Shown: in pieces, positions 49,856-51,914 of the stretch
Numbering within the stretch: position 1 is the stretch's first letter
Layout: each line of letters opens with the position of its first letter
From: Escherichia coli
GTDB lineage: Bacteria > Pseudomonadota > Gammaproteobacteria > Enterobacterales > Enterobacteriaceae
Length of the DNA: 64,000 nucleotides
NCBI RefSeq assembly: GCF_044324875.1
Contig: NZ_CP172185.1
Strand: one strand, 5' to 3'
Notes under the pieces: model-generated
Databases searched by the model: none
Told to the model about the DNA's origin: nothing
The model's input: only the letters and a program-made list of their open reading frames with translations
Position numbers and translations under genes: made by a program

Positions 49856-50311
49856 TTATTCAACACCTGAATCCCCCGCCGCTTCTCTCCCCTTTATAAA
49901 ACGCCCCTTCCGGAATCCAGACCGCTGCAGTGCACGACGAAGATGACCGTATACCGTCTTGTCATTCTGCCCCGTCTCTTCTGTAATCTCCGCAATACTT
50001 AAACCTCTGTAATACCGGTTCAGTACCGCTCTGCGCTCTTCCAGCGTCAACACACCTCCGGCCGCTCTCAGATTCAGCATCGACTTATTCAGAATACAGC
50101 AGGCCTCTCCGGTAAAAAGAATACGAACAATATCTGTATACTCATCATCACAGAATACAAAATAATATCTGAATGACCTGCCTGACTGCACCCTTCTTCT
50201 GTCTGATATGGCATCTTCTATATATCTGATTCGACTGCTTACGGTTCCAAATATCTCTCGCAGGGCTTTTTCAAAATAAATATCTCTCGTCGCCAGGATT
50301 ATATCCAGCAT
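49856..50311 (-). CDS. Putative transcriptional regulator with C-terminal HTH (LuxR or sigma-70 region-4-like)
   Basis: 151-aa ORF; …LTLEERRAVLNRYYRGLSIAEITEETGQNDKTVYGHLRRALQR. Confidence 0.5.
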   Translation of the reverse strand: MLDIILATRDIYFEKALREIFGTVSSRIRYIEDAISDRRRVQSGRSFRYYFVFCDDEYTDIVRILFTGEACCILNKSMLNLRAAGGVLTLEERRAVLNRYYRGLSIAEITEETGQNDKTVYGHLRRALQRSGFRKGRFIKGREAAGDSGVE

Positions 50312-50372
50312 CTCTGTACCTCATTATATCCCGGGGGACTCCCCCCGGGACAGATATCTAAATCCTGACCTG

Positions 50373-51914
50373 TCAGAACTCAAAATTCACACCAGCATTC
50401 CACGATGCGGATGACCCACCTGCAGCAACTGCAACTTTTCCTGCCACATTCTCTGTGAAACGGTAGCCCACGCCCACCGCAATGGCCTGCTCATCACGGT
50501 AACCACCAACGGCTGCTGTCGCGTTAAATTTTCCAACACTGTATGGCTGGAAAAGACCTGCCAGTGCCGCGCTCTGGGCTGCACTCTCCCTTAACTCCTT
50601 CCGGTTCTCTTTAATCTGCTCCTGCATATTATTCATTCTCTCTGTCGCCATCTTCTGCCAGGCTTCCGTCAAATCCAGACGATGACTGTTATTCCTTATC
50701 GCTGCTGTATTTGAGGCTATTGCTGCATCCGTCTGCGCCCTGTTCTTCACAAGCACATCGCTGAGATGTTCTGCCTGGCTTTTCGCTTCTTTACGGGCAT
50801 CCCGTACACTTTTATCTGTATAAGCCCGGGAAACCTGAACTGTTTCATCCGCTTTTTCTTTTATTTCATCCTGAAGAGCAAGAGAAGATGCATCCGTATA
50901 CGCCACCGCTGCCGATGTGCCTGCAATAATATCCCTGCTGAGTTCATCACGTACTGCTGTAACCTGACTGTCAGTATGAGCACGGGCATCTCTGTATACA
51001 CCGCCTATCTCACCGCGCAGACTGTCTCCCTCTGCCTTCAGTTCATCACGTACTGCTGTGACCTGACTGTCAGTATGAGCACGGGCATCTCTGTATACAC
51101 CGCCTATCTCACCACGCAGACTGTCTCCCTGTGATTTCAACTCATCACGTACTTTGTTCGTCCCATCCTTTATCTCATCCTGAAGTGCAAGCGCTGTTAC
51201 ATCTGTATACGTCACCGCTGCCGATGTGCCTGCAATAATATCCCTGCTGAGTTCAGCATGAACTGTTGAAAGACGTTTATCTGTCTCGTCAATTCTTTCA
51301 TTCGTCTGCAACAAAAAGACCTGTGCATCATCAAATCGTTCATTCAGTTGCCCTACCGTCGCTGCATCTGTGTTATTGATACCATCAGACACATTTATAA
51401 TCCGGCGGGTTTCCGGTGCTCCTTTGACACTCTTTCCATATCCCTCAGGCCCGGCACCAACAGATACCACGTTATTTTCTCCCGACACCTGTGAGCCATG
51501 GCCCAGAGCTACAGAGCCTGAAGAATTTTCTATTCCAGCCCATCCCCCAATAGCAACACTCTGCTGTGAATTAAATACCTCAGCGCTCTTACCTATGGCA
51601 ACACCATATTTTGACTCAGCCTGACCGGTATCCCTTCCCAGGGTGACACTGTGTGGAGAATTATACACTTCCGAAAAAGAGCCAAACTGAAGACTTCCTG
51701 GTGAATCCATGTTAAAAGCGCCACCTCCCAAAAGGAAAGTGTTATTAACTGTACCAGTTAAATTCGTAATAAAAGAGTTTTCTCCAATCAGTAAGCTGGA
51801 AGAATTACCATCAACAGGCCCTGTCAAAACAGCCTGAGCCTGAGCCGAGAGCAGCAGGGCCACACTCACTGCCAGCGCGCTTTTCTTTAAAAAAGCATCA
51901 CGTCTTTTAAGCAT
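50373..51914 (-). CDS. YadA-family trimeric autotransporter adhesin, Eib-like
   Basis: Signal peptide [28 protein letters not shown] from the ATG at 51914 (AGGAGA upstream); coiled-coil stalk with 33-aa tandem repeats; C-terminal anchor …[30 protein letters not shown]. Confidence 0.7.
50942..51150 (-). repeat. 99-bp tandem repeat, about 2.2 copies, in the adhesin stalk
   Basis: GTTCATCACGTACTGCTGT(A/G)ACCTGACTGTCAGTATGAGCACGGGCATCTCTGTATACACCGCCTATCTCACC… repeated; encodes DELK(S/A)(Q/E)[27 protein letters not shown]. Confidence 0.85.

Follow-up and report, generated by a model that had tools for sequence, protein, structure and literature searches.

Why does a gene for a trimeric autotransporter adhesin (TAA), closely followed by a gene for a small helix-turn-helix (HTH) protein, lie behind the tail-fibre genes of an Escherichia coli prophage, and is the adhesin an Eib? 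We addressed this question for a locus at positions 49,856 to 51,914 of a 64,000-nucleotide (nt) stretch of contig NZ_CP172185.1 (RefSeq assembly GCF_044324875.1), hereafter the window. Among the traits of Shiga toxin-producing and other E. coli that Eib-type adhesins influence are aggregation, chain-like adherence and virulence. The most probable reading is that a decayed lambdoid prophage carries a cargo ('moron') cassette here, at its tail-fibre end, which follows the plan of an eib locus and is equipped with a non-Eib TAA and an HTH partner. The TAA gene is intact and is part of an eib-like cassette of prophage origin; it occurs as natural length alleles and is tightly linked to the HTH gene. 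As far as the locus is concerned, the analogy with eib fits well. The adhesin itself belongs, as an ordinary and uncharacterised member, to a known class, and nothing here departs from known biology; the one modest lead is the putative ORF-151/156 regulator family (ORF, open reading frame), long deposited as part of eib loci yet unstudied.

Domain anatomy of the adhesin

The TAA coding sequence (50373..51914, minus strand, stop codon included) encodes 513 amino acids (aa) from an ATG. A longer ORF with a TTG start extends to 51968; the ATG is the start used in the RefSeq annotation of relatives, and those with the identical start are labelled 'YadA-like family protein'. The protein comprises, in order, a putative signal peptide (aa 1-28), a degenerate YadA-like head (about aa 30-170), a neck (171-192), a coiled-coil stalk (195-450) and a membrane anchor (455-513). 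Judged by eye, the N-terminus reads as a Sec signal peptide, with a basic n-region, a hydrophobic core and an AQA/V site; the NCBI annotation pipeline (PGAP) names shortened copies 'Tat pathway signal sequence protein'. The head is made of degenerate YadA-type repeats resembling SadA fragments, and a phmmer search of the PDB matched the SadA head/neck fragments 2YO0/2YO3 (E 6.6e-8). Pfam detects the neck motif (51339..51404, minus strand) with YadA_stalk (E 2.9e-5) and the YadA-type anchor (50376..50552, minus strand) with PF03895 (E 3.5e-16), and the PDB search likewise matched the YadA anchor 2LME (E 2e-17). Anchors of this type supply four strands to a 12-stranded barrel. The anchor ends in GVNFEF, as in the Eibs, within an invariant block common to EibA, EibC and EibD. 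The gene is intact and, by its predicted domains, is a TAA (type Vc) with a YadA-type anchor, neck and coiled-coil stalk. Pfam and the PDB search thereby confirm the initial annotation, which had proposed from the letters alone a 513-aa TAA with a stalk and a YadA-type C-terminal anchor and had staked this on detection of the anchor by a profile.

Relation to the Eib proteins

We compared the adhesin with the original P-EibA, P-EibC, P-EibD and P-EibE records (GenBank AF151091, AF151674-6). Using tblastn, it aligned with EibA at 57% identity over aa 396-488, with EibC and EibD at 37.5% over aa 299-488 and with EibE at 40% over aa 340-488; upstream of these C-terminal ranges the four records gave no match. 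Its last 118 aa are 57% identical to the EibA-like protein of NCTC9112 (locus L011). In a multiple alignment, the block shared with the Eibs is invariant from about aa 431 to the end, and no counterpart of the Eib N-terminal domain or of the saddle block, a minidomain between the right-handed and left-handed stalk (PMC12511318), is present in the adhesin. Even with a threshold of E 10, the phmmer search of the PDB did not return 2XQH, the EibD passenger (residues 160-418), and it matched 2XZR at E 0.18 only, whereas two controls match 2XQH: the EibA-like protein of NCTC9112 at 1.7e-31 and, from the Cla-like locus L012, the 400-aa TAA at 1e-41. Against EibD the similarity falls off abruptly: 61 of 93 positions (66%) are identical over EibD residues 419-511, and 6 of 35, with a 10-residue gap, over residues 384-418. 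The latter interval (approximately) is reportedly the Fc-binding coiled-coil segment (Leo et al. 2011).

As judged from these alignments, the adhesin is an Eib-type translocator and membrane-proximal left-handed stalk joined to a different passenger; it appears to be a relative of the Eibs rather than a demonstrable Eib, and Fc binding is predicted to be absent. Because its head and stalk differ and it has no saddle, N-terminal domain or Fc segment, its most likely role is that of a lollipop-type adhesin or autoaggregation factor and not of an immunoglobulin receptor. The initial label of 'Eib-like' is thus accurate for the C-terminus, where anchor and membrane-proximal stalk are 57-66% identical to Eibs, and does not extend to the head, the saddle or the N-terminal domain, in keeping with the failed match to 2XQH.

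It is quite improbable that the adhesin is instead a true Eib, a new allele whose membrane-proximal coiled coil binds IgG Fc or IgA. Some NCBI records call close homologues 'immunoglobulin-binding protein', but current RefSeq naming has dropped the Eib label. The layout of the locus is that of eib loci, and the anchor and last part of the stalk have the Eib identity given above; the same comparison loses the saddle, the N-terminal domain and any match to the EibD passenger structure. An Asp of the adhesin aligns with D394 of EibD, the IDGRV aspartate, in the very segment that is otherwise reduced to 6 of 35 identities and a gap. Furthermore, Cla, a related non-Eib lineage, has been shown experimentally not to bind IgG Fc (bioRxiv 10.64898/2025.12.25.695649).

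Saa, at 25.5% identity over aa 124-488, was rejected as the identity of the adhesin, and YadA is 24% identical; the adhesin has no full-length plasmid match, all of its E. coli matches being chromosomal.

Stalk repeats and length variation

The stalk contains two tandem 99-bp (33-aa) units (51146..51048 and 51047..50949, minus strand, together spanning 50949..51146), detected by Tandem Repeats Finder as a period of 99 with 2.2 copies (50941..51153). The duplication had been described as exact; it is near-exact, with 92 of 99 nt and 31 of 33 aa identical, the residues SQ in one unit being replaced by AE in the other. The units sit between the arms of a longer repeat with a period of 103 aa, which bears out the imperfect repeat of roughly 100 aa in the initial annotation. 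Both of its arms, the first at aa 221-249 (51168..51254, minus strand) and the second at aa 324-352 (50859..50945, minus strand), include LALQDEIK.

Stalk repeat copy number differs between isolates. The 120 closest protein clusters have from 0 to 4 units, and lengths form a 33-aa step series in three head backgrounds (480/513/546, 482/515/548 and 484/517/550 aa). In global alignments, proteins 98.4-99.6% identical to the adhesin (the 480/513/546-aa series) deviate from it by a single exact 33-aa indel at aa 263, and in an allele of 410 aa precisely 103 aa are missing, starting at aa 221. Complete genomes hold the 513-aa and 480-aa alleles at the same locus. From these natural 33-aa and 103-aa indel alleles we conclude that the repeat is real and generates length polymorphism, as the initial annotation had suspected. 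It is very improbable that the duplicated units stem from misassembly or are a neutral relic without a role in variation. Short-read assemblers can collapse or expand 99-bp repeats at 93% identity, but the identical two-unit allele occurs in many independent complete genomes, with one- and three-unit alleles in the same backgrounds, and the step series recurs in each of the three head backgrounds; the artefact is already contradicted by these data.

The units have a hydrophobic periodicity of 3.65 residues, or 11/3, and one 33-aa unit therefore corresponds to three hendecads and nine helical turns. Gain or loss of a unit should consequently keep the coiled-coil register. Recombination or slippage between the 99-bp copies would then lengthen or shorten the stalk with its register undisturbed, and recombination between the arms of the 103-aa-period repeat could remove the larger block. 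The 33-aa and 103-aa repeats are a ready typing marker, and their alleles are a natural experiment on the effect of stalk length on TAA function.

Locus layout, linkage and prophage origin

GenBank records AF151091, AF151674 and AF151675 share the order J, lom, orf-401, orf-191, stem-loop, eib, stem-loop, orf-156, orf-60. In the window the corresponding order is J, stf, a 191-aa DUF4376 gene, TAA, hairpin and the 151-aa HTH gene, in agreement with the initial placement of the adhesin in the position of prophage-borne eib genes; the tail-fibre and DUF4376 genes are upstream on the same strand. The DUF4376 gene (52694..53269, minus strand), an ORF-191-like tail-fibre accessory, matches phrog_1141 (tail fibre, E 1.4e-62). 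The cassette would thus consist of ORF-191/DUF4376, an AT-rich control region, the TAA, a hairpin, the small HTH protein and tiny hydrophobic ORFs.

We surveyed 5426 complete E. coli genomes. The 3' half of the TAA gene and the HTH gene, at no less than 99% identity, are found in 183 of them, always on the chromosome; the two are contiguous in 163 of the 183, with insertion sequence (IS) elements intervening in the others. The pair is kept together in the prophage, in a shiF-iuc island and in a chromosomal context between the transketolase operon and a lysozyme-inhibitor gene. The prophage arrangement, in which stf, DUF4376 and a window-type TAA are contiguous, occurs in 17 complete genomes; in locus L017 the run continues from the TAA through HTH, an IS256-family element and DinI to the ompW site. 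In island and chromosomal copies the DUF4376 gene is reduced to its final 75-80 bp, all breaking off at window position 52773, and the prophage arrangement is therefore ancestral.

About 3% of complete E. coli genomes contain the adhesin, often beside aerobactin genes; many of these genomes are from poultry and human extraintestinal isolates. This prevalence and frequent adjacency make it a plausible unrecognised colonisation factor.

A further group of roughly 330 complete E. coli genomes has a best match of 95-99%, and in most of these only the first 521 nt of the adhesin gene are left, annotated as 'hypothetical' or 'Tat pathway signal sequence protein'. At two such stumps, ending at the equivalent of window position ~51394, a sul2 resistance region replaces the downstream part, accompanied by aph genes and tetR(A) in locus L009 and by dfrA36 and ISCR2 in locus L010.

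The 151-aa HTH protein and the ORF-156 family

The predicted DNA-binding protein of 151 aa (49856..50311, minus strand) follows the adhesin gene on the same strand, as first annotated, and has a Pfam HTH domain (Sigma70_r4_2, aa 87-130, E 4e-7). The accompanying remark, which did not recognise such a gene as part of described eib loci, was wrong in substance. The original eib records carry a homologous ORF-156 at the same place, and the HTH protein therefore does belong to described eib loci. ORF-156 aligns with the 151-aa protein end to end at 22-23% identity, as does a 158-aa 'LuxR family' protein encoded shortly after the Cla-like TAA of loci L012 and L013; the pairwise E values are 4e-5 and 2e-6. 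ORF-156 is phrog_6585, a phage family without an assigned function, which the 151-aa protein matches over aa 3-75 (E 3.3e-4), in addition to a PHROG 'sigma factor' family. A word-based protein search with the HTH protein returned only copies at least 94% identical, from E. coli and Salmonella, and an exhaustive profile search was needed to reach the family. Searched against 1.84 billion representatives, a profile of four sequences recovered only about eight full-length clusters, with ordinary LuxR/GerE proteins as its remote tail. PADLOC returned nothing for the HTH protein, and Pfam nothing informative for the neighbours of two distant family members (L019, L022). We regard ORF-151/156 as a small enterobacterial and phage family that is coherent in a joint profile, with the 151-aa protein as a distant homologue of ORF-156.

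In an AlphaFold2 model of the HTH protein (predicted local distance difference test score, pLDDT, 75.6; predicted template-modelling score, pTM, 0.73), the N-terminal domain is beta-alpha and the C-terminal domain consists of three helices. The best full-length fold matches of the protein are FixJ, StyR, RcsB and EvgA, all weak. The receiver-like N-terminal domain is truncated, at about 85 aa; Asp D55 after strand 3 is invariant in the family, and the acidic pair after strand 1 is not conserved. The C-terminal domain is an HTH of the sigma-70 region 4/LuxR-GerE fold. The protein is accordingly best read as a putative LuxR/sigma-4-type DNA-binding protein with a truncated pseudo-receiver. An extracytoplasmic function (ECF) or other sigma factor was rejected: region 4 is the only sigma region present, and a protein that lacks region 2 does not qualify as one; NCBIfam sigma models score far below cutoff, and the N-terminus is beta-alpha.

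A member of the family is found just 3' of a TAA, directly or after one short ORF, in all three lineages examined (eibA/C/D, L012/L013 and the window TAA), and an eib-type anchor adjoins orf-156 in 71 genomes. Loci L012 and L013 are a third version of the adhesin-plus-small-HTH module. There, the 400-aa TAA has an EibD-like head and a saddle and comes after genes for a giant protein with GA-like domains and for calcium-binding proteins; 3' of the TAA are a 68-aa ORF, the LuxR gene of the ORF-156 family and, 2-3 kb further, an ibrA-like gene.

Hairpins, upstream region and transcription

Between the TAA and HTH genes there is a GC-rich hairpin (50327..50352, minus strand, fold z -3.84) whose stem is 11 bp long and which no U tract follows, and a second hairpin spans the TAA stop codon (50357..50384, minus strand). 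The former had been noted initially; its presence holds, its position moves from 50324..50345. The 111 nt around the TAA stop and HTH start (50290..50400), which include the 61-nt spacer, are 100% identical in six loci. The HTH gene is probably co-transcribed with the adhesin by read-through of this U-tract-less hairpin.

Upstream of the adhesin is a conserved AT-rich region (51915..52693, minus strand; 33-36% GC nearest the adhesin), which presumably holds the adhesin's own promoter and includes terminator-like hairpins at 52653..52680 and 52346..52367. The promoter in this region could be silenced, and the two hairpins could shield it from transcription of the tail genes. A palindrome search upstream of the adhesin for regulator sites returned only short, unremarkable inverted repeats. 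Some 150-250 bp upstream of the adhesin start (~52060..52160), two clearly different alleles occur, one in the window, L001 and L017 and the other in L006 and L018, in loci that are otherwise near-identical; a promoter or operator segment may have been exchanged here.

A candidate regulator

Expression of EibG and Eib-type adhesins is strongly regulated and is induced in static culture, for which no regulator is named (PMC4352079). The HTH protein is probably a regulator of the adhesin, or else both respond to one signal; linkage suggests this role. That the HTH gene is instead a prophage gene with a job of its own, such as a sigma-like or late-gene factor or a lysogeny regulator, and adjoins the adhesin only through its location at the prophage end, we consider rather unlikely. 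The similarity to sigma-70 region 4 and the matches to the PHROG 'sigma factor' family and to phrog_6585 would fit such a job; the missing sigma region 2 and the alpha/beta N-terminal domain do not. One family member adjoins RTX-like genes and not a TAA, and a real terminator separates eib from orf-156. In the window lineage, however, the gene stays with the adhesin after the loss of all other phage genes (L005-L008), the pair is contiguous in the 163 of 183 genomes noted above, and a family member is just downstream of the TAA in every one of the three lineages examined.

Several points weigh against reading the locus as a cassette of a non-Eib adhesin and its regulator. The eib hairpin 5' of orf-156 is a canonical terminator with a U tract, which argues against obligatory co-transcription in the wider family. 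A simple sigma-70 promoter scan found no promoter on the minus strand. The regulatory role of the HTH protein is drawn solely from adjacency. The near-identity of the cassette across genomes (at least 99%) means that its conservation says little about constraint, and the Asp aligned with EibD D394 leaves room for residual Fc binding.

More speculatively, and with some doubt on our part, ORF-151/156 proteins could be dedicated pseudo-receiver LuxR-type regulators that travel with Eib-type TAAs, in prophages and islands, and switch them on, with the 33-aa units as a second, heritable layer. Switching on might occur by counter-silencing of the AT-rich upstream region or in response to the static-growth signal that induces EibG. 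If so, the in-register 33-aa units would add a second, heritable layer of variation in stalk length. To our knowledge, no regulator of Eib-type adhesin expression apart from ibrAB is known, and a small DNA-binding gene linked to every lineage examined is a concrete and cheaply tested candidate.

History of the window

Past the HTH gene, the window continues into an IS256-family element, ISL3 remnants, shiF and the aerobactin operon. This combination of the prophage tail module with an IS256/ISL3/shiF/aerobactin flank (45000..58000) is found in none of the 5426 complete genomes, in which all island-type matches stop at 52773. In four genomes that were checked (ECCNB12-2, TUM1886, DG341-1 and LR-31), a prophage copy and an island copy are present in opposite orientation, about 0.5-0.6 Mb apart. 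It is almost an even question, in our judgement leaning slightly to the negative, whether the adjacency in the window is secondary, arising by a large inversion through homologous recombination between inverted paralogous cassettes or by a mis-join across a roughly 3-kb repeat. The absence of the hybrid arrangement from the survey and the four genomes with inverted copies favour a secondary origin, but no clean crossover point can be seen in the upstream region, which is a mosaic, and the prophage arrangement itself is genuine and ancestral. A large inversion between the cassettes and an assembly mis-join would each yield exactly the window arrangement; either would alter the history of the window and not the nature of the cassette.

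Neighbouring genes

The genes on the minus strand follow the order J, an IS21 element, a split stf, the DUF4376 gene, an AT-rich spacer of ~780 bp, TAA, the 61-nt spacer and the HTH gene. J, the lambdoid host-specificity gene, is at 60871..63873 (minus strand). The C-terminal part of the collagen-like side tail-fibre gene (53284..54780, minus strand) is separated from the N-terminal part by an IS66-family (ISCro1-like) element, with its transposase at 54844..56415 and accessory genes to about 57459. The side tail-fibre gene contains long collagen-like Gly-X-Y runs (cf. PMC3368898), and the prophage of strain ECCNB12-2 (L017) has a similar IS66-family insertion within its tail-fibre gene.

Two tiny hydrophobic ORFs lie 3' of the HTH gene on the minus strand, one of 25 aa (49789..49866), which overlaps the HTH stop codon, and one of 41 aa (49649..49774). 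Both have a transmembrane-like stretch and are retained in eight loci, one of which has an in-frame 3-nt deletion. An Rfam scan of 49500..53300 at E up to 1 gave two chance-level matches and nothing else, and no NCBIfam model is specific for any of the adhesin, HTH and DUF4376 proteins.

An ibrA-like/ibrB-like pair is found 32 kb from the adhesin (16926..18781, minus strand), with the two genes overlapping. The ibrA-like gene encodes a 408-aa protein that is PAPS-reductase-like, with weak BrxP/DndC matches, and is 81% identical to a gene near the Cla-like locus L013; the ibrB-like product is 214 aa and ParB/Noc-like. IbrAB are reportedly activators of eib expression (Sandt et al. 2002), and the pair in the window is possibly relevant to the adhesin. 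The remainder of the window is a heavily IS-ridden island adjoining amiC, with several IS21, IS66, IS3 and IS256 copies (among the coordinates singled out in the island are 6708..7967, 21893..23416 and 30652..34122). It also encodes the reverse transcriptase of a group II intron and, upstream of iutA-iucDCBA, a sitABCD-like Mn/Fe transporter.

Comparison with known systems

The closest known systems are the eib loci, which share with the window a position at the end of a lambdoid tail module and the succession of ORF-191/DUF4376, TAA, hairpin, a gene of the ORF-156 family and a small hydrophobic ORF. In eib loci the last of these is ORF-60, with a C-terminal hydrophobic helix, in the place of the two tiny hydrophobic ORFs of the window. 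The Eibs are similar in size to the adhesin and share its anchor and membrane-proximal stalk (57-66% identity, ending in GVNFEF). In contrast, the adhesin has a different head, a stalk of 33-aa hendecad units and no N-terminal domain or saddle, and the Fc-binding segment is not conserved in it; its hairpin is without the U tract of the eib terminator, and the upstream control region is unrelated to that of eib loci at the DNA level.

ORF-156 is nearly the same length as the 151-aa protein and occupies the same post-adhesin position, sharing the N-terminal motif M.IILATRD.YLE.GL, the invariant Asp and the HTH, although overall identity is 22-23%. Relative to the NarL/FixJ class with degenerate receivers (RcsB, EvgA), the receiver-like domain of the 151-aa protein is truncated and lacks the acidic pair, and no partner kinase is evident.

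Among other TAAs, Saa (the STEC autoagglutinating adhesin, encoded on pO113) and YadA are lollipop proteins of similar length to the adhesin, but they are plasmid-borne, 24-25% identical to it and have unrelated repeats. The length of Saa reportedly also varies, through a 37-aa direct repeat (Paton et al. 2001). Cla and Yal, compared here by description only, are lineages of EibG-like adhesins without the Eib N-terminal domain (bioRxiv 10.64898/2025.12.25.695649). Cla has a pronounced saddle, which the adhesin lacks. Yal, with no predicted saddle and no known function (bioRxiv 10.64898/2025.12.25.695649), fits the saddle-less anatomy of the adhesin; Yal is said to group nearer Saa, whereas the anchor of the adhesin resembles Eib (57-66%) far more than Saa (25%).

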